Below, in pieces: positions 6,258-43,657 of a stretch of 64,000 nucleotides of DNA (positions are counted from its first letter, which is position 1; each line of letters opens with the position of its first letter). The notes under the pieces are model-generated. The model saw only the letters and a list, made by a program, of their open reading frames with translations, was not told the origin of the DNA and searched no databases. Both the position numbers and the translations under genes were made by a program. The DNA lies in IMG/VR virus record IMGVR_UViG_3300045988_119437, positions 72,768-136,767 of that record. One strand, 5' to 3'. Source of the DNA: a virus.

Positions 6258-6561
6258 GATTGCAAGAGATTTTCTTTCTAAAATGAATCCTTCTGGATGG
6301 AATGGACGTGGATACAAACCGGATACATTTAATGATAAAGATCAGATTAAATATCATGTAGATGGTCACCCTGAAATTGATGTGGATGTTTATTATGAAT
6401 ATGATGCTGGCGATAATAGCTGGTGGCATTTTTGTGATGCACGTTACAATGCTTCTGGCGATAAAATTCTTGGTGTGTGTAATCCTAATGTTTGGTCTAT
6501 TGATGCGATTGAAGAATCTGCTAAATATTTATTTAGCAAAATGAATATTGAAATTAAATAA
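6244..6561 (+). CDS. hypothetical protein
   Basis: ORF overlapping upstream gene end. Confidence 0.5.
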   Translation: MTAREIARDFLSKMNPSGWNGRGYKPDTFNDKDQIKYHVDGHPEIDVDVYYEYDAGDNSWWHFCDARYNASGDKILGVCNPNVWSIDAIEESAKYLFSKMNIEIK

Positions 6562-9761: not shown

Positions 9762-9986
9762 ATGATGGTATATGGAAACATAACGTGTAATCGCTGTGGC
9801 ATTACATGGTATGGCCCTAAATGTGGAAAGCTCTATTGTGATAAATGTCGTAAGATAATAAGAAATGAGGCATCCATTCGATGTAAGAACAAAAAGAAAC
9901 ATAAACCAACATTTGTTGAGATTGTAAGAATGGCAGATGCTGAAGGATTATCTTACGGTAAGTATTGTTTGAAGTATGGAGTTTGA
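9762..9986 (+). CDS. zinc-ribbon small protein
   Basis: CNRCG...CGKLYCDKC cysteine pairs. Confidence 0.45.
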   Translation: MMVYGNITCNRCGITWYGPKCGKLYCDKCRKIIRNEASIRCKNKKKHKPTFVEIVRMADAEGLSYGKYCLKYGV

Positions 9987-10845
9987 GGTGAATGTGATGA
10001 GTGCGCTTGAAAACGAAAAGAAAATCGAAAATACTGTTGCTCTTGATTTTTCTGACTACGATTCTTCTAACAAAGAAAAACGTCAGAACGTAGTTAAAAA
10101 GAATTATAGCCTAACTCGTATGGAAGCAAATCATGGGTCAGTTCAGCCAATTAAAGACAAAGAGGATATCAAACGTATTTCAGAATATTTTTGGATTAAA
10201 CGTCAGTACCGCAACTGGTGTTTGTTTAATGTAGGATGTTGCACAGGATTCAGAGCAAGTGATTTGCTTCGTTTGAAGGTTTCTGATGTAGCAGCTACAG
10301 ATATGAATGGAAAGGTTGTGGTGAATTTCAACGCAAAACTTCGTGTTAAGGAAAAGAAAACAAATAAGTATCGCATTCTTAAAGTTCCGGTCCCGGCACT
10401 AAAGTGTATTCAAACTTATATCAATATTGATGGATTGTCTTATGACGATTGGCTCTTCCCGTCTCGGCAAGGCAGTTGGAAGAACTCCATGAGAACAAAC
10501 GGTGGAACAAGCGTGAGTAAATCTGGTGTGTTCCGTAAGTATGATGCGAATCCAAAAGAAATGGGCGATCCGCTTGATGTAGATTCTTTTGGTAGAATCA
10601 TGCGTCAAGTTGGTAAGGAGTTAAATCTTTCTGTACAGCTTGGTTCTCATAGTTGCCGCAAAACTTTCGGATATCAGTTTATTGAATCTCATCCAAATGA
10701 CGTAAAAGCTCTTGCGTGGTTGCAGCATAGTCTGAATCACAGTAGTCAGGCAATTACGCTTCGCTATATTGGTCTGGATGAAGAAGTGGATGATGAATAC
10801 TACTCTGGGATTGATTATGGCGTGGACTGTCATGAAGACTCTTGA
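9976..10845 (+). CDS. tyrosine recombinase (phage integrase family), internal copy
   Basis: GFRASDLLRLK (Arg box), HSCRKTF (His-x-x-Arg box), LRYIG (catalytic Tyr) motifs. Confidence 0.7.
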   Translation: MEFEVNVMSALENEKKIENTVALDFSDYDSSNKEKRQNVVKKNYSLTRMEANHGSVQPIKDKEDIKRISEYFWIKRQYRNWCLFNVGCCTGFRASDLLRLKVSDVAATDMNGKVVVNFNAKLRVKEKKTNKYRILKVPVPALKCIQTYINIDGLSYDDWLFPSRQGSWKNSMRTNGGTSVSKSGVFRKYDANPKEMGDPLDVDSFGRIMRQVGKELNLSVQLGSHSCRKTFGYQFIESHPNDVKALAWLQHSLNHSSQAITLRYIGLDEEVDDEYYSGIDYGVDCHEDS

Positions 10846-16973: not shown

Positions 16974-17097
16974 ATGGCATCATCTAAAATTTTAAACTTT
17001 TACAACAACAAAAAGATGTATAATATATTGGCTAAAACAAAAAGATGTGTATAATATATCTTGAAAGTTGTCTAAATGAGTGGAGGGCGGTGTTTTA

Positions 17098-17424
17098 ATG
17101 CGTGAGAAAAAGGTTTTGGAAATTATACAGGTTGAAAACTTTTTGAAGTACATAAGAAAAAAGCGAGTGTGGGTCTGCTTTATTTGTAATGGTGTGGATG
17201 TTCACATGATCTGCAAGAAGATGAACGATATTGGTGTAGAGACACATGGGATTGTCAAAGGCATTGGATTTTTTGGAAACGAAAGTCATGTTGAGCTGCG
17301 GCAAGAATGCTACGAAGTAAGGAGGGTTGAGTTTAGGCCGGGCGATAAAGAGAAAGCGTATGAGATGATCTTCGATAACACCAGCGTGTTCGTATCAGAG
17401 AATCCAGAGTTGTACGGGCACTAA
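17098..17424 (+). CDS. hypothetical protein
   Basis: ATG after GAGTGGAGGGCGG; preceded by two tandem -10-like boxes (17003-17065). Confidence 0.5.
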   Translation: MREKKVLEIIQVENFLKYIRKKRVWVCFICNGVDVHMICKKMNDIGVETHGIVKGIGFFGNESHVELRQECYEVRRVEFRPGDKEKAYEMIFDNTSVFVSENPELYGH

Positions 17425-17443: not shown

Positions 17444-17472
17444 TTGACTTCTGTAAAGGTATCCTGTATAAT
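17444..17472 (+). promoter_or_regulatory. consensus sigma70-type promoter (TTGACT-17-TATAAT) carrying the GTATCCTGTATAATATAG motif
   Basis: TTGACT at 17444-17449, 17-nt spacer, TATAAT at 17467-17472; near-identical to the promoter at 42167. Confidence 0.6.
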
Positions 17473-17515
17473 ATAGCTATGGAACGGAGCTACACTATTA
17501 TAGAGGAGAAAGACT

Positions 17516-17935
17516 ATGGACAACAATATTGACCCAAAGGTCGGAGAGGTTTGGTTGGTTGATCTATCCAATGCGACAGGTCATCAGCAGCGCGGTATTC
17601 GACCGTTCGTTGTGACGAGTAACAATAAGCGCAACTTCTTCAGTCCCACAATCAAAGGGAATCCGTTGTCTTCCAGAACATACAAGCGTTCTCCGGTTCA
17701 TGTCCTGCTCTCAAAGGAAGATTGCGATTTCCTAGAGGTTGACAGTATCGTTCTCTGTGAAGAGACTGACACACTTAACAAAGGGCAGTTTATCAAAAAG
17801 CTTGGTGTCTTGTCTGAGCGTCATATGAATATGATCGCAATGGCCAGATGCAAGGATGAACCGTTTTTGATCTCGGCGTTCGTGAGCGGCGTACAACATA
17901 CTATGGAATTTCAGAATTTTGCCGCATTTGCTTGA
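17516..17935 (+). CDS. MazF/PemK-family toxin-like endoribonuclease (no cognate antitoxin seen)
   Basis: GEVWLVDLSNATGHQQRGIRPFVVTS matches the PemK/MazF N-terminal beta-strand motif; own promoter and GGAGGAG RBS. Confidence 0.6.
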   Translation: MDNNIDPKVGEVWLVDLSNATGHQQRGIRPFVVTSNNKRNFFSPTIKGNPLSSRTYKRSPVHVLLSKEDCDFLEVDSIVLCEETDTLNKGQFIKKLGVLSERHMNMIAMARCKDEPFLISAFVSGVQHTMEFQNFAAFA

Positions 17936-17988: not shown

Positions 17989-18915
17989 ATGCTTACTGAA
18001 GAAAAGATCAACGCTTTTGCTGAAAAGTATTCTGATAGAAGCGGCGAGTTTGTTATATCGACACTTAACCATGTTATGGACTACGAAGCGGAGTGCGGGT
18101 ATGAGTTATTCGACTTCACAAAAGATGATTTTGTAAAGATGTTTGCCAAATACAATTGGGTAAACTCAAGTCGTTCATTCAGAAATGTGAAATCGATAAT
18201 CACTGGTTATATCAAGAACGAAAATCGTACAAGCATGTATGATTTGGCTGAATTCTCAGAGAGCGATGTGAGTTCAGACAATATGTACGAGGACAAGTAT
18301 TTTGCATCGGTTGATGAGTTTGTTGGTTTCTTAAACAAGTATGAAGAAGCGTATCAGATTCGTATGAATGTGATTGCTGTTTTGTACTGGATCGGTCTTA
18401 CTTCTAGTGAGGTTTCTAATCTAACAATTAACGATGTAGACTTTGAATCTCGTACTGTCCTCGATAGGACTGATGTTGACGCAAGGTTGATGGATATCAT
18501 CAAGCAGTGTTATGAAATGAAACAGTATGATGCGCCCAATATGGGAGGATACAGAACATTTTATGTCATAAATGGTGATTACATTCTTCGTAAAACAGAG
18601 GATAGAACTGGTGTAGACAGCGACCCGAAGATGTCTGTAAATACAATCCATAGTTATTTTGTGAGGCTGAATGACATTCTCGAAAAAAGACATCATACAA
18701 AGATTTTAGATCGAAGACATCTGACCAGAAATGGTGAGTATGTGAAGGTCTACGATTACTGTAAGAGTAATTCAGAGTTCAACCTTGCGGAGCTTAGTTT
18801 CGGAAATGGTAAAAAACCTCTTGCAGACATTATTGGAAGAAAGTGTAGCAAGGTAGCTTACATTAGTTTCCGGCAGGGATACAAGGGCTGGGTCGAATAC
18901 TTCCACAAAAATTAA
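17989..18915 (+). CDS. hypothetical protein (308 aa)
   Basis: ORF behind TATAAT box at 17967 and AAGGAG RBS; weak integrase-like segment LYWIGLTSSEV. Confidence 0.55.
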   Translation: MLTEEKINAFAEKYSDRSGEFVISTLNHVMDYEAECGYELFDFTKDDFVKMFAKYNWVNSSRSFRNVKSIITGYIKNENRTSMYDLAEFSESDVSSDNMYEDKYFASVDEFVGFLNKYEEAYQIRMNVIAVLYWIGLTSSEVSNLTINDVDFESRTVLDRTDVDARLMDIIKQCYEMKQYDAPNMGGYRTFYVINGDYILRKTEDRTGVDSDPKMSVNTIHSYFVRLNDILEKRHHTKILDRRHLTRNGEYVKVYDYCKSNSEFNLAELSFGNGKKPLADIIGRKCSKVAYISFRQGYKGWVEYFHKN

Positions 18916-18920
18916 AAACA

Positions 18921-18944
18921 GGGGGCTTCGGCCCCTTGATTTTA
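18921..18944 (+). terminator. rho-independent terminator
   Basis: GGGGC-TTCG-GCCCC hairpin followed by TTGATTTTAAC. Confidence 0.6.
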
Positions 18945-18952
18945 ACATCATA

Positions 18953-18972
18953 ACTATATGACACAGGATACT
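18953..18972 (+). promoter_or_regulatory. conserved motif copy (AACTATATGACACAGGATAC)
   Basis: Reverse-orientation copy of GTATCCTGTRTWATATAG, about 80 nt upstream of gene 19050. Confidence 0.45.
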
Positions 18973-19049: not shown

Positions 19050-20276
19050 ATGAGAACTTTGCTTCTTTTCCGTGGAGCACCAGGATGCGGGAAGTCCACC
19101 TATATTAAAGAGCATGATCTGGAAAAGTATACGCTTAGTGCCGATACGATTCGCCTTATGTGTCAGGGTGGTCAGGAAACCCCGGCTGGCACAATGGAAA
19201 TCTCTCCCCAGAACGATGATGTTGTCTGGGATATGCTCTTTAAACTGTTGGAGGTTCGGATGTCTCACGGTGAATTTACCGTGATTGATGCAACGAACTC
19301 TAAAACTGTTGAAATCAATCGCTATAAGAATCTTGCAAAGCAGTACAGATACAGAATGTACATCATCGACATGACTGATTTGCCGATTGATGAGTGTAAA
19401 CGGCGTAATGCGCTTCGTGCTCCTCTGAAGCGAGTTCCAGATGCTGCTATTGATAAGATGTATGCGCGATTTGCTACACAGAAGATTCCGTCTGGTGTGA
19501 CTGTACTTTCGTCAGATATAAATGTCCTTGAGAAATTGAACTATGTTCCGCAGGACTTTAGCAACTGGAACAAAATTCATATCATCGGTGATGTACATGG
19601 ATGTTACAGTTGCTTGAAAGAGTACCTTGGTGACCTGAAGGATGATGAACTGTACATTTTTGTTGGTGATTATCTGGATCGCGGTATTGAGAATGTAGAG
19701 ATGTTCAAGTTCCTTTGTGATGTTGTAGACAATAATCGGAAGAATGTAATTCTCCTTGAAGGAAATCACGAACGGTGGCTGAACAAGTGGGGCCATGATG
19801 AACCGGTTCAGAGCGAGGAGTTCGCAAACTACACTCGTCCGCAGCTTTTCAAAGCAGGGATTGACCATAATACGGCTCGTAAGGTTTATTCGAGAGTAGG
19901 ACAGTGCTCCTATTTTGATTACGACGAGAAAAGATACTTCGTTAGCCATGGTGGTTTGAGTTATTTGCCTGAATTTCTACCATTCGTGTCTACTGACCAG
20001 ATGGTAAAGGGTGTTGGTCGCTATCCTGATATGCTAACCGTGGCTGAGTCTTGGGAAAAATCGATGCCGGATAGCTACATTCAGATATTCGGTCATCGAA
20101 ATGTGCAGGATGTTCCTATTGATATGGGGCATCGGTGCTACAACCTCGAAGGAAAAATCGAGTTTGGTGGATATCTCCGTTGCGTGGAACTTGAACACGG
20201 TCAGTCAATCAAATGTGTAGAAACAAAGAATGATGTGTTCCGAAAAGAGGAGTCAAAGACTGAAACTACCGTTTAA
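19050..20276 (+). CDS. polynucleotide kinase-phosphatase (Pnkp-like: P-loop kinase + calcineurin-type phosphoesterase)
   Basis: N-terminal FRGAPGCGKST Walker A; C-terminal GDVHGC, GDYLDRG, GNHE metallophosphoesterase motifs. Confidence 0.7.
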   Translation: MRTLLLFRGAPGCGKSTYIKEHDLEKYTLSADTIRLMCQGGQETPAGTMEISPQNDDVVWDMLFKLLEVRMSHGEFTVIDATNSKTVEINRYKNLAKQYRYRMYIIDMTDLPIDECKRRNALRAPLKRVPDAAIDKMYARFATQKIPSGVTVLSSDINVLEKLNYVPQDFSNWNKIHIIGDVHGCYSCLKEYLGDLKDDELYIFVGDYLDRGIENVEMFKFLCDVVDNNRKNVILLEGNHERWLNKWGHDEPVQSEEFANYTRPQLFKAGIDHNTARKVYSRVGQCSYFDYDEKRYFVSHGGLSYLPEFLPFVSTDQMVKGVGRYPDMLTVAESWEKSMPDSYIQIFGHRNVQDVPIDMGHRCYNLEGKIEFGGYLRCVELEHGQSIKCVETKNDVFRKEESKTETTV

Positions 20277-21260
20277 ATGAAAACTGAGTTCGATAACGCA
20301 GAACTTGTCAGTAAGATGCGTCAAAGCAAATATGTGTTTGAGAAGCGATTCGGAGATATTTCTTCTTTCAACTTCTCTCGTGAAGCATTTTATAAGAAGC
20401 ACTGGGATGAGGTTTCTACCAAAGCAAGGGGATTGTTCATTAACACAAAGACGAATAAGATTGTAGCTCGAAGCTATGATAAGTTCTTTGCGGTCGATGA
20501 GCGGAATGAAACGAGAATTGGAAACCTACAGAACACTTTGAAGTTCCCGGTGACTGCATATCTGAAGGAAAACGGATTTCTTGGCATTGTCTCGTATGAT
20601 GCAGAACAGGATGGTCTGTTCATTGCAAGTAAATCCACTCCTGAAGGGCCTTTTGCAGATATGTTCCGAAAGATTCTCATGGATACGACTTCTGATGAAG
20701 ACCGTAAGAATCTGAAGGAAGTTGCAAAAGAGAATGGTTCCATCATTTTTGAGGTGATTGATCCTGTAAATGATGCTCATATCATCGAATACAAGAAACC
20801 GCACATTGTTTTGCTGGATATTGTTGCGAATGATATGAACTTCAGTGTGATGGATTACGATGATCTGAAGCGTGCTGCTGAAAAGTGTCATTTGCAGATT
20901 AAGGAGAAGGTTAAAATCTTTGAGAGCTGGAGTGAATTCTATCCTTGGTACGAGGGAGTCATGAACGAGAACTATCTGCATCATGGCTTTGAACATATTG
21001 AAGGGTTTGTCCTTCTGGATAGCACGAACTTTATGTTCAAGCTGAAGCTTCCTTACTACAAACACTGGAAGTTTTTGCGTAGTGTTATGCAGAGCGTTCA
21101 AAAGCGTGGCTATTATGAAAATACCGCAAAGTTGTTTACTGCTGAGGATAACCTGTTCTATGGTTGGATGCGTGAGCAACGAGAGAAAGACCAGGAATCT
21201 TTTTGCAAGAAGGGTATTATTCAGTTACGGAATGAATTCTATGAGAATCGGCACGAATAA
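20277..21260 (+). CDS. ligase-like nucleotidyltransferase (putative RNA ligase partner of Pnkp)
   Basis: Start abuts the Pnkp stop (TAAATG); candidate motifs I KENG, IV EGFVLLD, V FKLKL. Confidence 0.45.
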   Translation: MKTEFDNAELVSKMRQSKYVFEKRFGDISSFNFSREAFYKKHWDEVSTKARGLFINTKTNKIVARSYDKFFAVDERNETRIGNLQNTLKFPVTAYLKENGFLGIVSYDAEQDGLFIASKSTPEGPFADMFRKILMDTTSDEDRKNLKEVAKENGSIIFEVIDPVNDAHIIEYKKPHIVLLDIVANDMNFSVMDYDDLKRAAEKCHLQIKEKVKIFESWSEFYPWYEGVMNENYLHHGFEHIEGFVLLDSTNFMFKLKLPYYKHWKFLRSVMQSVQKRGYYENTAKLFTAEDNLFYGWMREQREKDQESFCKKGIIQLRNEFYENRHE

Positions 21261-21329: not shown

Positions 21330-21419
21330 GCCCAAGTGATGGAATGAGGTAGACATGAAGCTCCCAAACAGCTTTGCGTGAGATATCGCGTGCGGTTTCG
21401 AATACCGCCTTGGGCACCA
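21330..21419 (+). tRNA. tRNA-Leu(CAA), type II, CCA encoded
   Basis: Acceptor GCCCAAG/CTTGGGC, anticodon stem AAGCT/AGCTT, loop CCCAAAC, variable arm, T arm GCGGT-TTCGAAT-ACCGC; C33 unusual. Confidence 0.65.
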
Positions 21420-21459
21420 GAGTCCGAATATTCACCTATTAAATACTGGAGGCAAGTTC

Positions 21460-22356
21460 ATGAAAAGAATTGAAAAATTTTCAAAAGAAGAGATCGAGCA
21501 GATTTTTAAAGAGAGCAACAACTGGGCTACTGTGGCTGAGAAACTTGGTTACAGCAAATTCGGAGGAAGCTCTAGGGATGTAATCCAAACATATGCAGAC
21601 GAAAATAATATTGACACTTCTCATTTTACGGGACAAGGTTAGAATAAAGGTAATATTGATTTGACAAGATTTAAACAGGGCGTTCCATTCAAAGGGTTAA
21701 GAGAATCGCTCTTACTCATAAGAGAACATAAATGTGAATGCTGTGGAAACAAGGAATAGATGGGAAAGGAAATTTCGTTAGAAGTTCATCATATTGATGG
21801 AGATAGGCTGAATAATGAGTTATCAAATCTCAAGCTACTGTGTCCTAATTGTCATTCACAAACAGAAAATTATTGCGGGAGAAATATTAAGAGACATAGA
21901 GCTGTATCCGATGAAGAGTTTGTAAAGGCGCTTAAAACATCGAAGTCTATTGGTGAGGCGTTAGGAAAAGTGGGAATAAATTACATAGCTAAAAGCTGGT
22001 ATGAAAAAGCACGAGAACTTATGCTTGAAAATGAAATCAAGTTCCCGAAGAAAGAAACAATACAAAAAGGAAAGAACGAACGCAAAAAGCGCGAGACAAA
22101 ATCTTGCGCAAAATGTGGGAAAGAATTGAGTCCAAGAACAAAAGGGACACTATGCAAAGAATGTCTTTATAGTCTTCCATACAGAAGATCTAAAGGGTTG
22201 CCAGAAAGAAGTCAGCTTGAAAAAGATATCCGTGTTATGTCATTTTCTAAAGTTGGAGAAAAGTATGGTGTAACAGGAACTTCTATTCGTAAGTGGTGTA
22301 AATACTATGGACTGCCTTATAGAAGATCCGATATAAACAATACTAGCAAAGAATAA
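21460..22356 (+). CDS. HNH homing endonuclease with NUMOD-like repeats, interrupted by two in-frame TAG codons (21640, 21757)
   Basis: Single frame reads ...HFTGQG-TAG-NKGN...HKCECCGNKE-TAG-MGKEISLEVHHIDGD...NLKLLCPNCHS; HNH motif spans the second TAG. Confidence 0.6.
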
Positions 22357-22398
22357 TTTCAAAAGAATGAAGCTGTATTTTATACAGCTTCTGTATAT

Positions 22399-22486
22399 GC
22401 CGCAGTGATGGAGTGACATACATTTCCCGCTTAAACCGGGACGCCTGAAACACGGATCGTGGGTTTGAATCCCACCTGCGGCACCA
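22399..22486 (+). tRNA. tRNA-Leu(TAA), type II, CCA encoded
   Basis: Acceptor GCCGCAG/CTGCGGC, anticodon stem TCCCG/CGGGA, loop CTTAAAC, T arm GTGGG-TTTGAAT-CCCAC. Confidence 0.65.
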
Positions 22487-22489
22487 TAT

Positions 22490-22563
22490 CCAGAATGTAG
22501 TGTAATGGCAGCACGCTGCGTTTGGGACGCAGAAGAGCGATTCGAATTCGACATTTTGGACCA
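22490..22563 (+). tRNA. tRNA-Pro(TGG)-like; weak T stem, possible pseudo-tRNA
   Basis: Acceptor CCAGAAT/ATTTTGG, anticodon stem CTGCG/CGCAG, loop TTTGGGA, T loop TTCGAAT; only 3 bp of T stem pair. Confidence 0.3.
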
Positions 22564-22564
22564 G

Positions 22565-22585
22565 TGGAGTATTCCACTTGCTTTT
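22565..22585 (+). terminator. possible terminator hairpin
   Basis: GTGGA-GTAT-TCCAC followed by TTGCTTTT. Confidence 0.35.
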
Positions 22586-22659
22586 CATGAATACCTTCCT
22601 ATTATTCTTGGCTCTCCAAAAAAAACGGAGCAGTAGGACGCAGCAAGCCAAGTTACATA

Positions 22660-22749
22660 ATGAGGGTTCGCCAAGTGGTAAATGGCATCTGGCTTTGACC
22701 CAGACAGCGTGCTTTATAGCCGATCGTCGGTTCGATCCCGACACCCTCA
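22660..22749 (+). tRNA. tRNA-Gln(TTG)-like with an enlarged 21-nt variable region
   Basis: U1-A72 acceptor TGAGGGT/ACCCTCA, D arm TCGCCAAGTGGTAAATGGCA, anticodon loop CTTTGAC, T arm GTCGG-TTCGATC-CCGAC. Confidence 0.4.
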
Positions 22750-22754
22750 ATTTA

Positions 22755-22844
22755 TGGACACGTGATGGAATCGCAGACATGAAAGATTTAGGCTCTTTTG
22801 CCGTTAACAACGGTGTGCCCGTTCAAATCGGGTCGTGTCCACCA
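22755..22844 (+). tRNA. tRNA-Leu(TAG), type II, CCA encoded
   Basis: Acceptor GGACACG/CGTGTCC, anticodon stem AAAGA/TCTTT, loop TTTAGGC, variable hairpin CCGTT-AAC-AACGG, T arm CCCG-TTCAAAT-CGGG. Confidence 0.65.
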
Positions 22845-22947
22845 TTATCAACTTATGGTTGCGTACCGTTTGTTGATCTCCTTTGACCACTATTATTCCC
22901 AGCTCGCCAGTGATGGTGCAGTAGTGTTTTGTAAGCTGGGTTTTCAT

Positions 22948-23022
22948 GCGGCGGTCGTACAACGGCTAGTACATCAGCCTTCCAAGCTGAGGATGAGGTT
23001 TCGACTACCTTTCGCTGCTCCA
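22948..23022 (+). tRNA. tRNA-Gly(TCC), CCA encoded
   Basis: Acceptor GCGGCGG/TCGCTGC (two G-U pairs), D stem GTAC/GTAC, anticodon stem TCAGC/GCTGA, loop CTTCCAA, T arm GAGGT-TTCGACT-ACCTT. Confidence 0.65.
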
Positions 23023-23174
23023 ATCTCGTATGGGTAGGATCTTTGGCGGTCAGATCTGGCCGCGCCTGTGCGAGATACCACCCCGAAAGGGGCGAGATAT
23101 AGGAAATGTGCATCGCTGTTATTCCTTCCTCGTCTATATGATATAGATGCAATAGTGTTTTATAAGGAAGGTGC

Positions 23175-23210
23175 CCAGTTGAATAGTTGCAGCTATTTAA
23201 CTGGTTTTTA
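23175..23210 (+). terminator. rho-independent terminator-like hairpin ahead of tRNA-Met
   Basis: CCAGTT...AACTGG stem followed by TTTTTA. Confidence 0.45.
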
Positions 23211-23211
23211 T

Positions 23212-23292
23212 GGGACATTATCTCAATTGGTTAGAGAACTCAGCTCATAACTGAGCATATGTATCACGGTTCAAGTCCGACATGTCCCACCA
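23212..23292 (+). tRNA. tRNA-Met/Ile2(CAT)-like, CCA encoded
   Basis: Acceptor GGGACAT/ATGTCCC, D stem TCTC/GAGA, anticodon stem CTCAG/CTGAG, loop CTCATAA; T stem only 3 bp. Confidence 0.5.
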
Positions 23293-23396
23293 GCCCGAAA
23301 GGGCGTACATAAAACCCGCTAGAACTTTTGTTTTATAAGCGAATGAATAATATGACGTTGATACGTCTATTATTTTTCGCTCATTTTTAAAGTTTT

Positions 23397-23416
23397 AGCT
23401 ATATAATACAGGATAC
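23397..23416 (+). promoter_or_regulatory. conserved motif copy (AGCTATATAATACAGGATAC) immediately upstream of the MTase RBS
   Basis: Near-exact reverse complement of the 17455 and 42182 motif; contains a TATAAT box. Confidence 0.5.
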
Positions 23417-26993: not shown

Positions 26994-27004
26994 TTTTTAG
27001 TCTT

Positions 27005-27024
27005 AGCTAAGTAATACAGGATAC
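27005..27024 (+). promoter_or_regulatory. conserved motif copy (TAGCTAAGTAATACAGGATAC)
   Basis: Reverse-orientation copy directly upstream of the RBS of gene 27039. Confidence 0.45.
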
Positions 27025-35519: not shown

Positions 35520-38500
35520 ATGTCAGATAATTTTGTAAATCTTCATGTACATACAGCGCAGGGTTCGTTACTTGACTCTATTCTTACCGTCAAGGAACTT
35601 GTAAACTTTGCCAAAGAAAATGGCCAGAAAGCAATCGCGGTTACAGACCACGGAAAAATGCACTCTTTTGTTGACCAAGTTAAGGCTTGCAAGGAAGCAG
35701 GTATTAAGCCTATCATCGGCTGTGAAGTCTATGAAGTAGATAATCAGGCAGAGAAAGCCGATACAAAAGACTATAAACAACCTCGTTACCATCTTGTTTT
35801 ACTAGCAAAGAACGAGACCGGTTTAAAAAATCTATTTAAGATTGTTTCAAATGCTTGCGTTGATGGTATGTATAAAAAGCCTCGAACTTCTTTGAACATT
35901 ATTGAACAGAACGAGTGGGGTAAAGGTATCATCTGTCTTACAGCCTGTCAAGTTGGTCGAATGAGTAGATTACTTGTTGATGGCAACGAGACTGAAGCAT
36001 GGCAGTTATGGAACAAACTGGAATGGATCTTTGATGACGTGTTTATGGAAGTACAGTCACATGATACGCCAGATCAAGCTGAGGCCAATGCAAAAATTGC
36101 GGCGTTTATTAGGAAATACGACTTGCCGTATACCATTACGACCGATGCTCACATGCTTTCTAAAGAAGATATTGATGCACACTCTGTCTTTGTTGAGATT
36201 GGAGAAGGCCGAGAAGTTGGTGAAAGCTACGTTGACTGCTATCTTCAGACTGAAAACGATGTTTTGAGAACGCTATCAAAGCAGTTTGATGAGGACTTTA
36301 TCAAAAAAGGCTGTGAGATGTCTGTGAAAATCGCAGACATGATTGATGATATCGATATCGGTCTTGGACAGCCGAACCAGATGCCAGAAGTGAAAATTGA
36401 GGGAAAATTTGATTCTCATTTTGATTATCTTCGGCACCTTGTATATGCCACTTTTAATAAAAAATTCGGGTGGATGAGTGAAGTGGAACAGCAAACCCGG
36501 CGGAATCGTATTGAGATGGAACTGGATGTTTTGAAGTATGTTGATTATATTGACTATTTCATTATGCTGTATATGCTTTGCAAAAAGGCTGATGAACGCA
36601 AAATTCCTCGTGGGTACTCTCGTGGTTCTGGCGCAAATTGTCTTTGCCTTTTTATGGAGAATGTTACTCAGATTGACTCTGTTCGTTGGGATCTTGACTT
36701 CTCTCGCTTTGCAAACAAAGGTAGAAAGAGCCTGGCCGACTTCGACTTCGATGTCTCTAAACGTCGTCGAAAGGAACTTATTGCTATTGCAGAAGAACTT
36801 TTCGGCAAAGAAAATGTTGCTCCTATCGCTACGTTTAACTCTTTGTCTACAAAAGTTGCCATCAAAGATATTGGCAAAGTTCTGAACGAAGACCCAGAAA
36901 GCCCGTATTATATGCAGATTCCGTATGAATTACGTAATGAGGTCGCCAAGTTAATTCCGACTGTAAAAACGCTGGATGATCTTGGCGAAGAAGTTGAAAA
37001 GGAAGTTCTACTAAAGGATATCCTCGGAAAGAGTGAACAGCTTTCTAATGTATATGACAAGTTTCCTCTATGGTTCAAATACGTTATGCGTCTTGAGGGT
37101 CTGCCTAAGAGTATGGGTCGCCATGCTGCCGGTACATTGATTACGCCCAAGCCTGTCATTGAATATTGTCCTCTTTGTATGGACAGAGAAGGCAATCAGA
37201 TGTGCCAACTTGAGATGCACAATGCCATGGATGATTTGTCGCTGGTCAAGATGGACTTCCTTGGTCTTGAGAATCTGGACATTATTGACGATACGTTAAA
37301 GATGGCTGGATTAACATGGGAAGATGTCGATATCAACCATCTTGATCTAAGTGATAAGGCTGTCTATGATACCGTCTACAAGTCGGGCAACACAATTGGC
37401 ATTTTCCAGATGGAATCTGCAGAAGCACGAAAGATGTGTGTTGAAGCAAAGTGCGATAATGCTGAGGATATCATTGTTGTGAACGCAGCGAATCGTCCTG
37501 GTACTAAGGACAGCTTCCCGACGTATTGCTCCAATAAACTTCATCCAGAGACTATCAAACTACTCCATCCTGACATCAAACAGCTTTTTGCTAAGACGCA
37601 ATACATTCTTCTTTATCAGGAACAGGCACTAGCGGTATTCCGCTATGCAGGATTCCCTGAAACTGAGGTTGACAATGCTCGTCGTGCTATCGGCAAGAAA
37701 AAGAAAGATGTTATGGCATCCTTGGAAGTTCAGTTCCGAGATGGTCTTCACAAGAAAGGATGGAATGATTACCAGATTTCTGAGATGTGGGCACTAATCT
37801 TGAAGCAGGCTTCTTATTCCTTTAATAGAGGCCACGCAGTTGCGTATGGACTTCTTTCTTACCTGACGGCTTACCTGAAAACTCATTATACTGAGTATTT
37901 CATGGCTGCGTGTATGATTACCAAGGAAGACGATTCTGGCAAAATGGGTGTGTTTATCAACGAATGCGACCGTCTACATATTCGTGTCCTTCCTCCAAGT
38001 GTCAACAAGTCTGATATGGAATTTAAGGCTGATGCGGAAAAGCACACAATCCTGTTTGGTTTGAAAGCCATTAAGGGAATGGGTGAGAGTGTCGCTTCAG
38101 GAGTGATTGCAGACCGTCCATATTCTGGACTGGCAGACTTTGTTCAGAGAGCAAACGGTGGTAAGATTGGAACCTCAAATGTTGTCAAGTTGATTAAGGC
38201 TGGCGCTATCCCGACAAAGGATAAGAAAAAAATCTTAATCACTTTTGCAAATATGGTTTTTGAGAATGAGTATAAAGAGAAAGGATTCCATGAGATGGCG
38301 TCTCTCCCTAAGATTTCCATTCTTAAAGACGAATACGGCATTGATACGGACTCTGTTAAAGACAAACCAACCAGACTTGCCTTATATAATAAGGTAAGAA
38401 GGGAGCGCTGGGAAGCGGGCACATGGAATCGAAAGAAAGAAAAAGACAAAAAGCGGAATGCATTTATGCAGGCGTTTGCTGAAAAGTATATGCAAGACGA

Positions 38501-38864
38501 GCACATGTGGGAATTTGAAACTCTTTCAATGTTTTTGACTAGCAATCCCATTAAGGATGCTTGCACCTATATTGATGCTGGTCTTGATACTGTAGAGGAT
38601 GGCGGTAAGGCAACTGCTATTTGTGTCATCGTAGATATCCAAAAAAAGAAGGATAAACGTGGCAACCAGTTTGCGTACTTACATGTTTACACGACAGGTG
38701 GTATTGTCGAAATGATTTGTTGGGCATCTCAGTATGCACGATATTCAAGTCTGATTTCAAAGGGTAACGATCTTGCAATCCTTTGCAAGAGAAAAGAAAA
38801 TTCGTACATTGTTGAGAAGATGAAGCCTTATAAGCAGTGGCTGCATGATAGAGAGATAGCGTAA
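35520..38864 (+). CDS. DNA polymerase III alpha subunit (PHP + polymerase core)
   Basis: PHP motif NLHVHTAQGSLLDS, catalytic LADFDFDV, 1114 aa. Confidence 0.85.
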   Translation: MSDNFVNLHVHTAQGSLLDSILTVKELVNFAKENGQKAIAVTDHGKMHSFVDQVKACKEAGIKPIIGCEVYEVDNQAEKADTKDYKQPRYHLVLLAKNETGLKNLFKIVSNACVDGMYKKPRTSLNIIEQNEWGKGIICLTACQVGRMSRLLVDGNETEAWQLWNKLEWIFDDVFMEVQSHDTPDQAEANAKIAAFIRKYDLPYTITTDAHMLSKEDIDAHSVFVEIGEGREVGESYVDCYLQTENDVLRTLSKQFDEDFIKKGCEMSVKIADMIDDIDIGLGQPNQMPEVKIEGKFDSHFDYLRHLVYATFNKKFGWMSEVEQQTRRNRIEMELDVLKYVDYIDYFIMLYMLCKKADERKIPRGYSRGSGANCLCLFMENVTQIDSVRWDLDFSRFANKGRKSLADFDFDVSKRRRKELIAIAEELFGKENVAPIATFNSLSTKVAIKDIGKVLNEDPESPYYMQIPYELRNEVAKLIPTVKTLDDLGEEVEKEVLLKDILGKSEQLSNVYDKFPLWFKYVMRLEGLPKSMGRHAAGTLITPKPVIEYCPLCMDREGNQMCQLEMHNAMDDLSLVKMDFLGLENLDIIDDTLKMAGLTWEDVDINHLDLSDKAVYDTVYKSGNTIGIFQMESAEARKMCVEAKCDNAEDIIVVNAANRPGTKDSFPTYCSNKLHPETIKLLHPDIKQLFAKTQYILLYQEQALAVFRYAGFPETEVDNARRAIGKKKKDVMASLEVQFRDGLHKKGWNDYQISEMWALILKQASYSFNRGHAVAYGLLSYLTAYLKTHYTEYFMAACMITKEDDSGKMGVFINECDRLHIRVLPPSVNKSDMEFKADAEKHTILFGLKAIKGMGESVASGVIADRPYSGLADFVQRANGGKIGTSNVVKLIKAGAIPTKDKKKILITFANMVFENEYKEKGFHEMASLPKISILKDEYGIDTDSVKDKPTRLALYNKVRRERWEAGTWNRKKEKDKKRNAFMQAFAEKYMQDEHMWEFETLSMFLTSNPIKDACTYIDAGLDTVEDGGKATAICVIVDIQKKKDKRGNQFAYLHVYTTGGIVEMICWASQYARYSSLISKGNDLAILCKRKENSYIVEKMKPYKQWLHDREIA

Positions 38865-38876
38865 GAGGGTTATAAA

Positions 38877-41800
38877 GTGGCAGATAAAAAATTCAATGAA
38901 AATATGATCCGTTGCTACATCAGGATAAAACGAGTCTTTTATCCGAAAGATGGGAGGGAGGTGGAGCCCGGCGGCTTCGCCACTTTCTCTGCCGAGGTGG
39001 TAAAAGTCAAGCAGGGAAATCCTGTTATGAGTCGATACAGTGACCTCCGGTTAAAGGGCAACGTTCCTAGCCTCGATATGAATAAAACTTATTCGTTCTG
39101 TGGTGAGTATGTTCATCATGAAAAGTTTGGTGACCAGTATAAAATCATTTATATGAATGAGTTTCAAGAGATTACTGACCCGGAAGAACAGAAAAGCTTT
39201 CTCCATTATATCCTGACCGACCATCAGTTTGAGATACTTTATGAAGCATTCGAAAATCCGTATGAGATTATCAAGAATGGTGATATCAAGTCGCTTTGCA
39301 CTGTTAGTGGTATTACGGAAGGCAGAGCTCAAAAGATCATTGATACTTATGAAAACAACATTGATAACAGTGATGCGTACACAAAGCTAATTGAGTACGG
39401 TCTGACCCCTAGTGCTATTGAAAAGCTTGTCCGTCAATATCATGGTGCAGACACTCTGGTGAGAAAGATTGAAGAGAATCCTTACGTCCTGATTGACGAT
39501 GTGTATGGCATCGGCTGGAAGAAGGCTGACGCTCTAGCTCTGAATATGGGGTTGAAACACAATTCGCAATTTAGAATTGAAGCTTACGTCATGCACTTTC
39601 TTGCTGGCCGTGCCGAAGAAGGCAACTCTATCATCTCGGCAAACCAGACAATCAATAGCTGTATTAAGGAACTTGATTTGAATGAGGGTGACCAAGAAGT
39701 CATCAAAAGGGCACTTTTCCATTTGCATGATGCTCGTGAAACGCTTTGGTGGAGCGATGACCGTCAGGAATTTGCTTTAACTAGAGTGTGGAATCTGGAA
39801 GATAGTATTGCGAAGGAAATCAAGCGTCTGGCGGATGTTCCTGTTGAGCCGATTGGTCGAAATATGGATGCAGCAATCAATGAGGCCGAGGATGAACTTG
39901 GTATCGAGTACACTGAAGAGCAGAGAGATGCTATTAAAAAGGTATGCTCTAGCAACGTCTGTATCTTAACAGGTTACGGCGGATGCCTTGATGCAGAGAT
40001 GGAGTTCTTTAATGGTATCCAATGGAAAAAAATAAAAGATTATGTTAAGGGCGACAAAGTTCTTCAATATAATGAAAATGGGACTACAACGCTTGTTGAG
40101 CCTGAGAAATATGTAAAATTTAAATGTGAATATCTATATCACATGAAAAACAAGTCGGGCAGTATCAATCAACTATTGAGTGCAGAGCATAATGTTGTTT
40201 ACTTGACCAGCAAAAACAATTTAGCTAAAATCCCAATGTGGGAGTTGTATCAAAGAAATGTTAAACGAAAGTCTGGGTTTAACGGACATTTTATAACAAC
40301 GTTCAATTATGATGGTCCAGGAATCGATTTGAGCGATGCTGATATTAGACTAATGTGTGCTGTTATTTGCGATGGGTCGTTTTTGAAGGATCATAAATCA
40401 GCTTGGTGTAGAGTAAACGTAAAAAAAGAGCGAAAGAAACTTCGCATGAGAAGACTTCTTTTGGAAAGTGGTAGATACTTTGATGAGCATCAGTGGAATC
40501 CAAAAGACTTGGAATATTCGAACTTTGTCTTTTATGCTCCAAGAAAAGAAAAAAGATTTACTTCGTATTGGTATAGCTGTAATCATCATCAGCTAGAGGT
40601 GATTTGCGATGAGATTCTAAATTGGGACGGTCACGTAAAAGAGGGGAGACGGAAAGATTTTAGTACACTGATTAAAGAAACGGCAGATTTTGTTCAGTTC
40701 GCATTTTCTTCTTGTGGTTATCGTTCTGTTGTACATGAATCAAATATTGAACGGCACGGTAGAATGGTCACAGAGTATAATGTTCATATTGTGCAACACT
40801 CGAATGGAAAAGTTTCTCTTATGACAAAAGGCAGTAAAAGCGATATTGATATTGTTCGTTCAAGCGATGGATATAAGTATTGTTTTACGGTTCCGTCTCA
40901 TATGTTTCTGATAAGATATAATGGAAGAATTTGTGTCACAGGCAACACCGGTAAAAGTACCGTTGTCGCTGGTGTTCTAAAGGTCCTTCACGGTAAGTCT
41001 TTCGCTCAGACTGCACTCTCTGGACGTGCCGCAGCTCGTATGCAGGAGATTACTGGTCAGGACGGGAAGACCATTCATCGTCTTCTTGGTTATGATATTG
41101 AGAATGGTGGTTTCATTCATAACAAGGACAATCCTCTTGAAGAAGATATTATCATTCTGGATGAGACATCTATGGTTGGAGCTCAGTTGTTCTATGACTT
41201 GATTCAGGCAATCGAGACCGGAAAGCGATTCATCATGATTGGTGATGACGGACAGCTTGAGAGCATCGGTATGTGTAACATTTTCAAGGATATGCTTGCA
41301 TCTAAGGTTGTTCCTGTGGCTCGGTTGACTAAGATCCATCGTCAGGCAGCTAAGTCTGCAATTATCACGGAGAGCATCAAGGTTCGCAATGCTACGCAAT
41401 TGGTGCCTTATGGCTGGGCTGGTAGTGAGATTCGTGGTGAACTTCGTGATTTGGAGCTTGATATCTATAAAGATGCAAGTGAGTCATTCAATCACATCAT
41501 CAATCAGTACCGTACCTTATATAATAAGGTAGGGAATGATAGTGCGAAGATTCAGATTGTACTTCCACAGAAGCTGCGTGGTAGTATCTGTACTTATGAA
41601 GTCAATAATGCTATTCAGGAAATTGTGAATCCGAGTCGTGGTCAAGCAGAAGCAAAGGTCACAATCTATGGTGATGGCAAGGATAGAGTGTATACTCTGC
41701 GTGAGGGCGATCAAGTCATTATCAACAAGAACAATTATGAACTTCACACATACAATCTCAAGACAAAGAAAAAGGAAGAGAAGTGTCCGGTGTTCAACGG

Positions 41801-42170
41801 AAACCGTGGCATTATCCGAAAGATTGAGACTAGTTTTATTCTGGTTGATTTTGACCAATGGGGAACGATCTTCATTCCGCATTACTTTGGTGGGAATAAC
41901 ATCTGGGCAACGCTTGAACTTGCTTATGCTTTAAGTTGTCATAAACTACAGGGCAGTGAGGCTCCGTATGTGATTGTTGGTATGGACAACTCTGCATACC
42001 TGATGCTGACGAGAGAATGGCTCTATACGGCCATTACTCGTGCCAAGAAGTATTGTGTGATTTGCGCCGAAACTCATGCTCTTGATCGGGCTGTAAAGAC
42101 TTCGAGGGTGCCATACAAGCGGACGTTCTTGAAGGAATTTTTACGGAAAGAATTTTCAGAAAAGCATTGA
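38877..42170 (+). CDS. RecD2-like SF1 DNA helicase with HhH N-domain; Walker A interrupted by an intein
   Basis: GTG start; GIGWKKADALA HhH; ILTGYGG|intein|TGKSTVV rebuilds GxxGxGKST; C-terminal helicase motifs. Confidence 0.75.
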   Translation: MADKKFNENMIRCYIRIKRVFYPKDGREVEPGGFATFSAEVVKVKQGNPVMSRYSDLRLKGNVPSLDMNKTYSFCGEYVHHEKFGDQYKIIYMNEFQEITDPEEQKSFLHYILTDHQFEILYEAFENPYEIIKNGDIKSLCTVSGITEGRAQKIIDTYENNIDNSDAYTKLIEYGLTPSAIEKLVRQYHGADTLVRKIEENPYVLIDDVYGIGWKKADALALNMGLKHNSQFRIEAYVMHFLAGRAEEGNSIISANQTINSCIKELDLNEGDQEVIKRALFHLHDARETLWWSDDRQEFALTRVWNLEDSIAKEIKRLADVPVEPIGRNMDAAINEAEDELGIEYTEEQRDAIKKVCSSNVCILTGYGGCLDAEMEFFNGIQWKKIKDYVKGDKVLQYNENGTTTLVEPEKYVKFKCEYLYHMKNKSGSINQLLSAEHNVVYLTSKNNLAKIPMWELYQRNVKRKSGFNGHFITTFNYDGPGIDLSDADIRLMCAVICDGSFLKDHKSAWCRVNVKKERKKLRMRRLLLESGRYFDEHQWNPKDLEYSNFVFYAPRKEKRFTSYWYSCNHHQLEVICDEILNWDGHVKEGRRKDFSTLIKETADFVQFAFSSCGYRSVVHESNIERHGRMVTEYNVHIVQHSNGKVSLMTKGSKSDIDIVRSSDGYKYCFTVPSHMFLIRYNGRICVTGNTGKSTVVAGVLKVLHGKSFAQTALSGRAAARMQEITGQDGKTIHRLLGYDIENGGFIHNKDNPLEEDIIILDETSMVGAQLFYDLIQAIETGKRFIMIGDDGQLESIGMCNIFKDMLASKVVPVARLTKIHRQAAKSAIITESIKVRNATQLVPYGWAGSEIRGELRDLELDIYKDASESFNHIINQYRTLYNKVGNDSAKIQIVLPQKLRGSICTYEVNNAIQEIVNPSRGQAEAKVTIYGDGKDRVYTLREGDQVIINKNNYELHTYNLKTKKKEEKCPVFNGNRGIIRKIETSFILVDFDQWGTIFIPHYFGGNNIWATLELAYALSCHKLQGSEAPYVIVGMDNSAYLMLTREWLYTAITRAKKYCVICAETHALDRAVKTSRVPYKRTFLKEFLRKEFSEKH
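39984..40946 (+). mobile_element. intein (321 aa) with LAGLIDADG-type homing endonuclease core
   Basis: Starts with Cys after GYGG, block B SAEHN, LMCAVICDGSF LAGLIDADG-like motif, ends ...VTGN followed by T. Confidence 0.65.
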
Positions 42171-42195
42171 CAATTATATTCGTATCCTGTATAAT
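42167..42195 (+). promoter_or_regulatory. perfect-consensus sigma70 promoter (TTGACA-17-TATAAT) carrying the GTATCCTGTATAATATAG motif
   Basis: TTGACA 42167-42172 overlaps the helicase stop; TATAAT 42190-42195. Confidence 0.6.
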
Positions 42196-42201
42196 ATAGT
42201 T

Positions 42202-42304
42202 ATAAAAAGTCTCCATCCCGTAGGCTTAAAATTCTCTCTTTAGATGCATAACACAGGATACGAGAAAGAGAAGGCTTGCTCGTAACGACAAGCCTTTCTT
42301 TATT
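42202..42304 (+). ncRNA. candidate ~100-nt small RNA between consensus promoter and terminator
   Basis: Lies between the promoter at 42167 and the terminator hairpin at 42271; no credible ORF or RBS; contains an ACAGGATAC motif copy. Confidence 0.3.
42271..42304 (+). terminator. rho-independent terminator
   Basis: AAGGCTTG-loop-CAAGCCTT stem followed by TCTTTATT. Confidence 0.6.
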
Positions 42305-42330
42305 AGCTATAACTATATAACACAGGATAC
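42305..42330 (+). promoter_or_regulatory. conserved motif copy (AGCTATAACTATATAACACAGGATAC) upstream of the ligase RBS
   Basis: Reverse-orientation motif copy; an additional core copy sits at 42253-42261. Confidence 0.45.
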
Positions 42331-42343
42331 ACAAGGAGGCTTT

Positions 42344-43657
42344 ATGACAGATAAAGAGCTCATAGGTAAGCTTGATGCGATGGTTAAGGCATTGCAGAAA
42401 GCAAAGAAAAAGACGGACAAGACCCGCATTTTGCTGGATGCACGTAAGGATTTTGGAGATGAAGCTGATGAGTTAATGGCATTCTTCCGATTCCTGCTTG
42501 ACCCGGCAATTGTTACTGGCCTGTCTAATGCAAAGATCAATAAGAAGGTAACCGCAAGGCCGGATTTCGATGTTCAGTATCTCAGCTGCGGATACCTTTA
42601 TATTATGGGTGCTAGTCACAATACAGGCTCTGATACATCCATCGCAACAATCCAGAATTATTTACATAAAAATCCTGAATACGAAGAGTTTCTGAAACGA
42701 CTGTTCACTAAGAACCTGCCGATCGGAGTCGAGGCAGCTACCATCAATAAGGTGTACGGCGAAGAGATTGTTCCTGTCTGGGAGGTACAGCAGGGATATC
42801 CGATTGACAAGGTTAAACTGAAGCGGGATGAAATGATTTTTGTATCGCGCAAATTAAATGGAGTGCGCGGCACCTTTATCAATGGTCAGTTCATTTCCAG
42901 ACAGGCGCAAAAGTTTACTGGACTTGACCACATTATCAACGATATTAAAAATACTGGCTATTTTGGTTATGTATTTGATGGAGAGTTAATTCGTAAGAAT
43001 GTCGATGGTCTGTCAGATAACAAAAATTTCGTTGTTGGGACAGGCATTATTAACAGCGATTCTACAGATAAGAGCTGCATCAAGTTCGTAATTTTCGATA
43101 TGGTTCTACAGAGACAGTTTGAAAATGACGAATGTGTTGAACGGTATTCAGTTCGTAAACAGCGGCTTCTTGAGCTGAAAGAGAAAATCAAGCAGCACAA
43201 TCTTCAAAACATTGAAGTTGTCGAGATGGTCTACGAAGGAACCGACCATTCACAGATTGCTAAATGGCTTGATTATGCTGTTGCAAATGACTGGGAAGGA
43301 CTTGTCTGTAACAGAGATGTCCCTTACCGCCGGGCACGACATAATGGATGCCTGAAAGTAAAACGTTTTTATACTGTTGACCTGCGAATCATCGCGATTG
43401 AGGAAGGTCAGAACCGTCTGGCTGGCACGACGGGAGCTCTCGTTGTGGACTACAAGGGTAATGAGCTACGCATTGGCTCTGGCTTTGATGACGCTACGAG
43501 AGCTACTGTGTGGGCGAATCCTGATGACTACATTGGCAAGATTGTTGAGTGTAAATACAAAGAGGTCAGCTGTGACAAGAAAACTGGCGCTGAGTCCCTG
43601 CAATTCCCGACCTTTGTAAGATTTAGAGATGACAAGAACGAGGTGTCTTATGCCTAA
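42344..43657 (+). CDS. ATP-dependent DNA ligase
   Basis: Motif I KLNGVR (KxDGxR-type), III FDGEL, IV FVIFDM, V EGLVC, VI LKVKR. Confidence 0.7.
   Translation: MTDKELIGKLDAMVKALQKAKKKTDKTRILLDARKDFGDEADELMAFFRFLLDPAIVTGLSNAKINKKVTARPDFDVQYLSCGYLYIMGASHNTGSDTSIATIQNYLHKNPEYEEFLKRLFTKNLPIGVEAATINKVYGEEIVPVWEVQQGYPIDKVKLKRDEMIFVSRKLNGVRGTFINGQFISRQAQKFTGLDHIINDIKNTGYFGYVFDGELIRKNVDGLSDNKNFVVGTGIINSDSTDKSCIKFVIFDMVLQRQFENDECVERYSVRKQRLLELKEKIKQHNLQNIEVVEMVYEGTDHSQIAKWLDYAVANDWEGLVCNRDVPYRRARHNGCLKVKRFYTVDLRIIAIEEGQNRLAGTTGALVVDYKGNELRIGSGFDDATRATVWANPDDYIGKIVECKYKEVSCDKKTGAESLQFPTFVRFRDDKNEVSYA

Follow-up and report, generated by a model that had tools for sequence, protein, structure and literature searches.

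Does the short spacer between the genes for a RecD2-like helicase and an ATP-dependent DNA ligase in a large gut phage encode a small RNA (sRNA) of its own, or does it control the genes that lie behind it? The spacer belongs to a stretch of 64,000 nucleotides (positions 72,768 to 136,767 of the IMG/VR virus record IMGVR_UViG_3300045988_119437; hereafter the window, numbered from its first letter). In it, a preliminary description had noticed a perfect promoter followed about 100 nt later by a terminator, and had proposed a regulatory RNA for the ligase or a decoy for a motif-binding factor. The observation itself is confirmed, and the first interpretation is partly supported. The reading that we favour, to which we give about an even chance, is that the spacer is the repressor-controlled promoter region of the ligase and nucleotide-metabolism operon, with the ~100-nt RNA as its terminated leader; a stand-alone sRNA gene it probably is not. 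The observed basis consists of the promoter, a repeated box, the hairpins, their conservation, the absence of a reading frame and an architecture held in common with phage SPbeta, and the surroundings of the unit suggest that a new group of phages uses promoter and operator control of a type known from SPbeta. If this is true, a control logic in which a monomeric repressor of integrase fold is paired with a long asymmetric box, in and after host-type promoters, extends beyond the phages of Bacillus and operates in a large, abundant and uncultured group of ~130-kb human-gut phages (more than 100 IMG/VR contigs). This group has its own box sequence, swapped clade by clade, which would offer a concrete operator-repressor pair and a map of regulated promoters. 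The unit is also unusual in having a perfect promoter that fires into a terminator, and raises the question whether a regulatory leader became an RNA gene; as to the sRNA claim, the practical message is caution.

Promoter and probable leader in the helicase-ligase spacer

The promoter, here called P1, combines TTGACA and TATAAT across 17 nt and overlaps the helicase stop codon, as first described (Table 1). It is the sole 12/12 promoter match in the entire window, where a chance expectation of ~0.03 applies (64 kb, both strands), and it is a consensus host sigmaA-type promoter with a start predicted near A42202. To follow its conservation we used an IMG/VR scan based on the ligase, which gave 80 loci in human-gut phage contigs of 110–141 kb (ligase 74–97% identical), 79 of them with complete upstream sequence and representing 46 distinct spacer sequences. 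P1 is exact in all 79 of these close relatives, and a -10-like TATAAA at -1 to +5 is conserved too. Mean pairwise identity is 0.915 for the spacer vs 0.855 for third codon positions of the helicase and 0.69 for those of the ligase; being more conserved than third codon positions, the spacer is under selection.

The predicted transcript has a simple anatomy: RNAalifold on the relatives returns a 5′ hairpin, a linker of ~37 nt that is unpaired, and the terminator. The terminator was described correctly, with AAGGCTTG (42271-42278) and CAAGCCTT (42289-42296) separated by 10 nt and followed by TCTTTATT (42297-42304). The folding energy, A/U extension included (42265-42301), is -16.7 kcal/mol and the tail scores -3.7. 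Its core stem is invariant in the 46 distinct sequences, and it also ends the upstream replication operon; our terminator scan, with a loop limit of 8 nt, listed the 42265-42304 hairpin on the minus strand only. Hairpin 1, at the 5′ end, had been missed. It occupies columns 12-33 of the RNAalifold alignment, where the pair 19-26 is CG in 39, UA in 4 and UG in 3 sequences, and it is weak in the window (-4.2 vs -11.1 kcal/mol for the clade consensus). The linker is at least 90% conserved though predicted unpaired.

With regard to coding capacity, the claim of no open reading frame (ORF) stands in that no ORF is conserved among the 46 distinct sequences; the sole ATG frame of the predicted RNA (42244-42285, MHNTGYEKEKACS) has 13 codons, not 12 as had been stated, and is present in 2 of the 46. 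Also rejected was a frame of 6 codons that opens with ATT behind the GGAGG in hairpin 1, on account of its non-synonymous changes and non-standard start. Thus a non-coding unit between a strong promoter and an intrinsic terminator has support at the level of sequence and is kept in every close relative. After box 2, the second of three boxes in the spacer, most relatives carry GGGAAAGAAATGGCTTGCTCGTAA, in which ATG GCT TGC TCG TAA comes behind a run rich in purines. This 4-codon frame enters the terminator stem, and in the window (42262-42289) AAG replaces its ATG; the frame may be what is left of the start of a vanished gene.

Several other functions were tried for this unit and set aside. 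A type III toxin-antitoxin RNA antitoxin requires tandem repeats beside an endoribonuclease gene, whereas the RNA body is single-copy, the aligned transcript sequences contain no tandem repeat, and the MazF-like gene of the phage lies 24 kb away. A terminator/antiterminator switch between the CU-rich linker and the purine tract was rejected as well, for the two pair in the window but not in the clade consensus. A replication origin finds no support in the cumulative GC skew, which is monotonic with no inflection at 42 kb.

The 22-bp box and its candidate repressor

The core motif ACAGGATAC, a copy of which had been reported in the region and lies at 42253-42261 within box 2, is the 3′ end of a 22-bp asymmetric, non-palindromic box, ATAGCTATAT[A/T]ATACAGGATAC. 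The window contains seven copies against 0.29 expected, and the scores under a position weight matrix (PWM) are bimodal with nothing intermediate. Five boxes are direct (18950, 23395, 27003, 42240, 42309) and two are inverted (17459-17480 and 42182-42203), the latter, in P1, having escaped the preliminary description. Both inverted boxes lie inside plus-strand TTGAC[AT]-17-TATAAT promoters, where GTATCCTG occupies the spacer from -20 to -13 and ATAG[CT]TAT occupies -6 to +2. In the P1 spacer this GTATCCTG part is conserved while the adjacent bases vary among relatives; the box is therefore selected as DNA, in sequence that is outside the P1 transcript. Box 2 is degenerate in its 5′ half in the window (PWM score 17.9 vs 35–42 for the other copies). 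Both hairpin 1 and box 2 are weaker here than in most relatives, a weakness likewise overlooked at first. Four other plus-strand sigmaA-type promoters of the window (9739, 17028, 62458, 63853; 10–11/12) are all without the box.

Except for 42240 the direct boxes head gene clusters, none has a -35 element, and those at 23395, 27003 and 42309 end 0–3 nt before a ribosome-binding site (RBS). Taken together the box sites precede the clusters for RNA repair and transfer RNA (tRNA), methylase, replication and ligase, and relatives hold additional sites. A literature search with the motif string found only unrelated primer matches. We also considered a phage RNA polymerase or sigma factor reading the box, and none was found among the 48 window ORFs covered by our Pfam and PHROGs domain scans, ~70 kb of the phage being outside the window; the SPbeta polymerase YonO has one late start site only.

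The closest precedent is the SPbeta-like phages, whose master repressor is the integrase-fold protein MrpR/YopR/SroF (PMC10516654). Chromatin affinity purification sequencing (ChAP-seq) in SPbeta located MrpR on the repeated SPBRE element in ten prophage promoter regions, including those of yorE and yorM (PMC10516654), and SroF of phi3T binds as a monomer to a 26-bp asymmetric box, of which 24 of 26 bp are read (bioRxiv 10.1101/2025.11.27.690993). Such binding fits a non-palindromic 22-bp box that is used singly and in either orientation. In the SPbeta genome we found SPBRE inside TAGACA-17-TATAAT spacers (yorE, yorZ, yosX, yonP) and 0–5 nt before RBSs, at yopV and yonX downstream of a sigmaA promoter and at yopM with no such promoter evident. 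Furthermore, the SPbeta order yorE, Sak4-like, DnaB-like, yorJ, RecJ-like, DnaE-like, yorM mirrors the window from 27 to 39 kb, with SPBRE at PyorE and PyorM corresponding to the window boxes at 27003 and at 42182-42330.

The two systems therefore share a repeated non-palindromic box (15 bp in SPbeta as first defined, 26 bp in the phi3T co-crystal, 22 bp in the window), its placement at promoter regions heading operons (about ten in SPbeta), either in sigmaA spacers or directly before RBSs, and the gene order of the replication module, which has one box site ahead of it and another behind the polymerase. They are also alike in a degenerate tyrosine-recombinase-fold protein as binder, for which the window phage has a candidate, with its gene behind a box-carrying promoter. 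A further link is MazF: SPbeta and phi3T act on the host MazEF, which is part of their lysis-lysogeny circuit, and the window phage encodes a MazF-like protein beside its repressor candidate. Differences are that the box sequences are unrelated, that the window protein is only marginally similar (sub-threshold in Pfam and Foldseek, no BLAST match), that the inverted box of the window always coincides with a full -35/-10 promoter, that an intrinsic terminator separates P1 from the ligase, and that the window phage has an uncultured Firmicute of the gut as its host instead of Bacillus. In view of the SPBRE operator logic, the decoy idea of the preliminary description does not hold up well: the motif occurs in both orientations, including in an untranscribed spacer, and a motif that acts on DNA makes an RNA decoy unlikely.

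The candidate repressor is a protein of 308 amino acids (aa) encoded behind the second inverted-box promoter of the window (17444), which is conserved in relatives and drives the genes for the MazF-like and the 308-aa protein with no terminator before its gene. Between these two genes there is no recognisable antitoxin. Against MrpR_N_CB (PF22822) the 308-aa protein scores 21.9 bits, below the cut-off of 27, which one relative, P0186, reaches with 27.7 bits; nearly all homologues have weak precomputed matches to MrpR_C_cat (PF22823). Its box I catalytic arginine is replaced by threonine in an alignment to the Tn1549 Int. In a Foldseek comparison of its AlphaFold model (predicted local distance difference test 64) with PDB, the top five matches were SroF-DNA, SroF-Sar, YopR (twice) and MrpR, ahead of true integrases, at E = 0.03–0.3, which is not significant. 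On these similarities the protein is a probable distant relative of SroF/MrpR, as a candidate only, and the 22-bp box is its probable, predicted operator. Upstream of the 17444 promoter lies a 114-aa ORF (17080-17424) that matches no family and is served by a separate extended -10 promoter at 17028.

Under the favoured reading, an operator copy would cover the spacer, -10 and +1 of P1 in inverted orientation, with two further copies downstream (~+39 to +60, and at the ligase RBS), and it would most likely be bound by the phage's own 308-aa SroF/MrpR-like protein. We propose that the latter is autoregulated, because its gene stands behind the sole other inverted-box promoter in the window. When P1 fires, it would produce a non-coding leader carrying the 5′ hairpin, the pyrimidine-rich linker and box 2 as RNA. 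Most transcripts would stop at 42265-42304 to give the ~100-nt RNA, and the ligase together with ~20 kb downstream would be expressed via read-through and/or initiation at box 3. In this scheme we infer the identity of the box binder, repression on binding, accumulation of the short RNA and the extent of read-through.

A number of points weigh against it. A conserved, strong-looking terminator between P1 and the ligase is awkward for a promoter that is to express the ligase, and P1 is perfect in all close relatives though box 3 could serve the ligase alone. The inverted orientation is absent from SPbeta, whereas the window box occurs in both. The boxes at 18950, 23395 and 27003 have neither a -35 element nor a sigmaA promoter within 220 nt upstream, and such lone direct boxes may therefore be promoters for another factor, not plain operators; they could also be operators on read-through transcripts or -10-only promoters. 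The scores that link the 308-aa protein to SroF/MrpR are below threshold, and BLAST against phages and YopR as well as an alignment-profile search of PDB sequences returned nothing significant. Finally, the phage is probably an SPbeta-like, temperate gut phage, yet lysogeny is deduced solely from the presence of integrase-like genes and from the size of homologue contigs, which reaches 784 kb and suggests a prophage state; a scan of reference genomes found no prophage copy, its one match being 46% identical, on a contig of a Clostridium metagenome-assembled genome. A second tyrosine-recombinase gene, at 9976-10845 (Pfam Phage_integrase, E = 7.6e-17) and followed by the gene for a DnaB_2/DUF6291 protein, may encode the true integrase.

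Rival readings of the short RNA

The strongest rival, which we regard as unlikely, is a genuine ~100-nt trans-acting sRNA made from P1, whose unpaired CU-rich linker would pair with targets or which would bind a protein. Its layout is the classic one, with a perfect promoter, a 5′ hairpin, a conserved unpaired linker, a strong terminator and no conserved ORF. The main argument for it is that a perfect P1 has been kept despite the terminator and box 3 before the ligase, a pattern expected of a dedicated RNA product. There are also two promoters of the inverted-box type in the window, the other of which drives the toxin/repressor operon, so the sRNA might be co-regulated with that operon and expressed in the lysogen, its terminator insulating the lytic ligase operon. 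OOP RNA of lambda and sRNAs of the DapZ/MicL type have their own promoter and share the terminator of the upstream gene. The window RNA resembles them in its promoter at the end of a coding gene, its length of ~80–100 nt, its 5′ hairpin and single-stranded stretch, and a terminator that serves the upstream mRNA; it differs in having no antisense partner, predicted target, Rfam family or conservation of the body beyond close relatives.

The comparisons that might have favoured an sRNA gave little. Covariation lends thin support, with a single compensatory pair, 99% of cells paired and 13 of 500 shuffles scoring as well as the real alignment. When 113 phage translation-initiation regions were scanned with RNAduplex, the best energy was -31.4 vs a shuffle mean minimum of -31.0 kcal/mol, which is no target signal above shuffles. 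The covariance models of Rfam 15 have no match in 42167-42343, even at E up to 10, and elsewhere in the window the gathering score is reached by tRNAs only. Hairpin 1 and box 2, moreover, are degraded in the window.

Among more distant relatives, seven contigs with the same gene order (L197-L203) were fetched via helicase homologues 44–75% identical. A strong promoter of sigmaA type lies at the helicase stop, or overlaps it, in every one of them, six scanned at 10–12/12 and that of L198 read by eye at ~9/12 plus an extended -10; in two of them TTGACA overlaps the stop codon as in the window. The sequence of hairpin, linker and terminator is kept in none of the seven. In L199, L200 and L202 the promoter leads directly into the next gene without hairpin or terminator, and in L198 (6292-6437), L201 (5316-5460) and L203 (6267-6462) the clade-specific repeated boxes ATGACATAGTTTC, GATACAATCAACCACCG and GAGTATAAAAATATGA flank a hairpin without U-tract. 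L197, which has no ligase, shows the same module layout directly before its next gene (6322-6436), with its own box GTAACAAATC present twice, as an inverted copy within the promoter and a direct copy ahead of the RBS, and a hairpin with U-run in between. In these four clades the own box replaces ACAGGATAC at both of its sites, that in or behind the promoter and that next to the RBS, which suggests that operator-repressor specificities may diverge clade by clade. The promoter is thus old in this phage family and the RNA body is not; the conserved element is the promoter of the downstream operon with a fast-evolving box, not the RNA, and the dedicated regulatory sRNA for the ligase is not supported. 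A trans-acting sRNA as such, though possible, has no support either.

The conservation of the linker has another explanation in the close relatives themselves. An IMG/VR scan with GTATCCTGTATAAT recovered only the P1 and 17444 loci in related phages, and a wider box scan uncovered a third inverted-box locus in relatives, outside the window. This locus (in L215, L218, L219, L226, L227, L229, L231, L232, L252 and L254) consists of TTGACA-17-TATTAT with an inverted box, a hairpin AGTCC..GGACT with a T-run that the linker matches, a direct box, an RBS and a variable gene, the two boxes being complementary over 20 bp. It marks a mosaic boundary, with different genes behind the module in different phages. 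Box 1, hairpin 1 and box 2 of the helicase-ligase spacer are the same module. Behind box 2 there is only the 4-codon remnant (absent in the window), then the terminator, box 3 and the ligase. Because the module recurs before protein genes and none follows box 2, the candidate sRNA is anatomically a gene-less copy of a promoter-leader module. Linker conservation is thus largely explained by box 2 and the hairpin/T-run module.

Two readings build on this gene-less copy. In the first, a special form of the sRNA rival that we hold to be rather improbable, the ~100-nt RNA is the dedicated product of a gene-less operon with the same promoter type as the MazF-like toxin/repressor operon; the two would be expressed together, perhaps in lysogens, where the terminator would keep the lytic ligase operon shielded, and the RNA would act in trans on the lysis-lysogeny circuit. 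It would, for instance, buffer the MazF-like endoribonuclease, or titrate the box binder by a box 1/box 2 duplex in read-through RNA. In the second, somewhat less probable still, the unit is vestigial: arrival of the ligase cassette displaced the gene that once followed box 2, or that gene was lost, and the RNA does nothing of its own. The variable protein genes behind the module at the third locus, the remnant frame after box 2 in most relatives, and ligase-less L197 with the module directly before its next gene all agree with it. The entire spacer, however, is under purifying selection with promoter and terminator invariant among relatives, and a strong promoter that serves no purpose should have decayed.

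We consider antitermination of the lambda kind distinctly improbable. At PR'-tR' of lambda the short transcript is 6S RNA, and Q mediates antitermination past the terminator. By analogy (PR'-qut-tR'), a box-reading factor would load on RNA polymerase and allow read-through into the 20-kb operon, the short RNA being 6S-like. The likeness lies in a strong promoter whose -35 and -10 enclose a sequence for protein recognition, a short non-coding transcript, a terminator ~100 nt on and a long operon beyond, and the conserved TATAAA at the start of the transcript can be added to it. Against this, the domain scans of 48 window ORFs turned up neither a Q-like protein nor any other antiterminator domain, the downstream genes are for DNA metabolism (ligase, ThyX, NrdD) and not late genes, the box also stands alone before RBSs and in the 17444 promoter without a terminator, and distant relatives lack the terminator. 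Least probable is an RNA processing or stability element, in which a box 1-box 2 duplex capped by hairpin 1 in the read-through RNA of the helicase operon would be an RNase III-type site or a 3′ stabiliser: the boxes are complementary over 20/21 bp in relatives, as over 20 bp at the third locus, and one box 1 position varies with its box 2 partner (C-G in 24, T-A in 11, T-G in 7 and C-A in 4 sequences), but two operator copies in opposite orientation are complementary automatically, the co-varying position may merely reflect linkage, the boxes at 18950, 23395 and 27003 (direct) and 17459 (inverted) have no nearby partner, and window box 2 is without its 5′ half.

Gene layout around the spacer

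Table 1. Positions of the features discussed, in window coordinates
Feature	Position	Strand	Description
Second inverted-box promoter	17444-17480	+	TTGACT-17-TATAAT 17444-17472; inverted box 17459-17480 (minus strand)
PemK/MazF-like endoribonuclease gene	17516-17935	+	Pfam PF02452, E = 4.5e-19
Gene for 308-aa degenerate integrase-fold protein	17989-18915	+	candidate SroF/MrpR-like repressor, putative binder of the 22-bp box
Direct box	18950-18971	+	after terminator 18922-18935; ahead of Pnkp/RNA-ligase/tRNA cluster
Direct box	23395-23416	+	ahead of cluster with cytosine methylase
Direct box	27003-27024	+	start of replication module; positional counterpart of SPbeta PyorE
DnaE gene	35520-38864	+	
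RecD2-like helicase gene	38877-42170	+	stop codon TGA 42168-42170, inside P1 -35 hexamer
Promoter P1	42167-42195	+	-35 TTGACA 42167-42172, 17-nt spacer, -10 TATAAT 42190-42195
Box 1	42182-42203	-	ATAACTATATTATACAGGATAC on minus strand; covers spacer -20 to -13, -10 hexamer and ~+1/+2 of P1; proposed operator
Hairpin 1	42207-42227	+	relatives AAGUCUCC / loop / GGAGGCUU; window GUAGGCUU, giving a C.U mismatch
Pyrimidine-rich linker	42228-42239	+	AAAAUUCUCUCU..., conserved, predicted unpaired
Box 2	42240-42261	+	~+39 to +60; complete in most relatives, TAGCTATATAATACAGGATAC; window 3′ half only
Intrinsic terminator	42265-42304	+	core stem 42271-42278 / 42289-42296, A-tract/U-tract extension, U-rich tail 42297-42304
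Box 3	42309-42330	+	ATAACTATATAACACAGGATAC; 2 nt upstream of ligase Shine-Dalgarno
Ligase RBS and ATP-dependent DNA ligase gene	42333-43657	+	RBS AAGGAGG 42333-42339, gene 42344-43657

All genes of the window phage, which is ~130 kb in size, are on the plus strand. The gene content includes DnaE, the RecD2-like helicase, the ATP-dependent ligase, ThyX, NrdD, a tRNA cluster and RNA-repair genes, and the ligase is the first gene of the downstream ligase/ThyX/NrdD cluster. Searches of cultured phages by megablast and tblastn found no close relative, the best matches being 58% identical for the ligase and 40% for the helicase; the upstream neighbours differ at both of the nearest cultured-phage ligase homologues.

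The helicase contains an insertion of ~318 aa (residues 371-688; window 39987-40940) placed exactly in its Walker A motif, TGYGG-C...GN-TGKST. Its first residue is cysteine and its last is asparagine, followed by threonine, which are intein-like ends, and Pfam recognised neither an intein nor an endonuclease domain in it. A 98%-identical homologue of 776 aa is without the insertion (GLGGCGKST). At 19050-21260 and 21330-23292, a polynucleotide kinase-phosphatase-like gene and a T4 Rnl1-like RNA ligase gene beside seven tRNA genes form an RNA-repair set, and in the relatives L207-L210 kinase-phosphatase and RNA ligase are fused into one 736-aa product.

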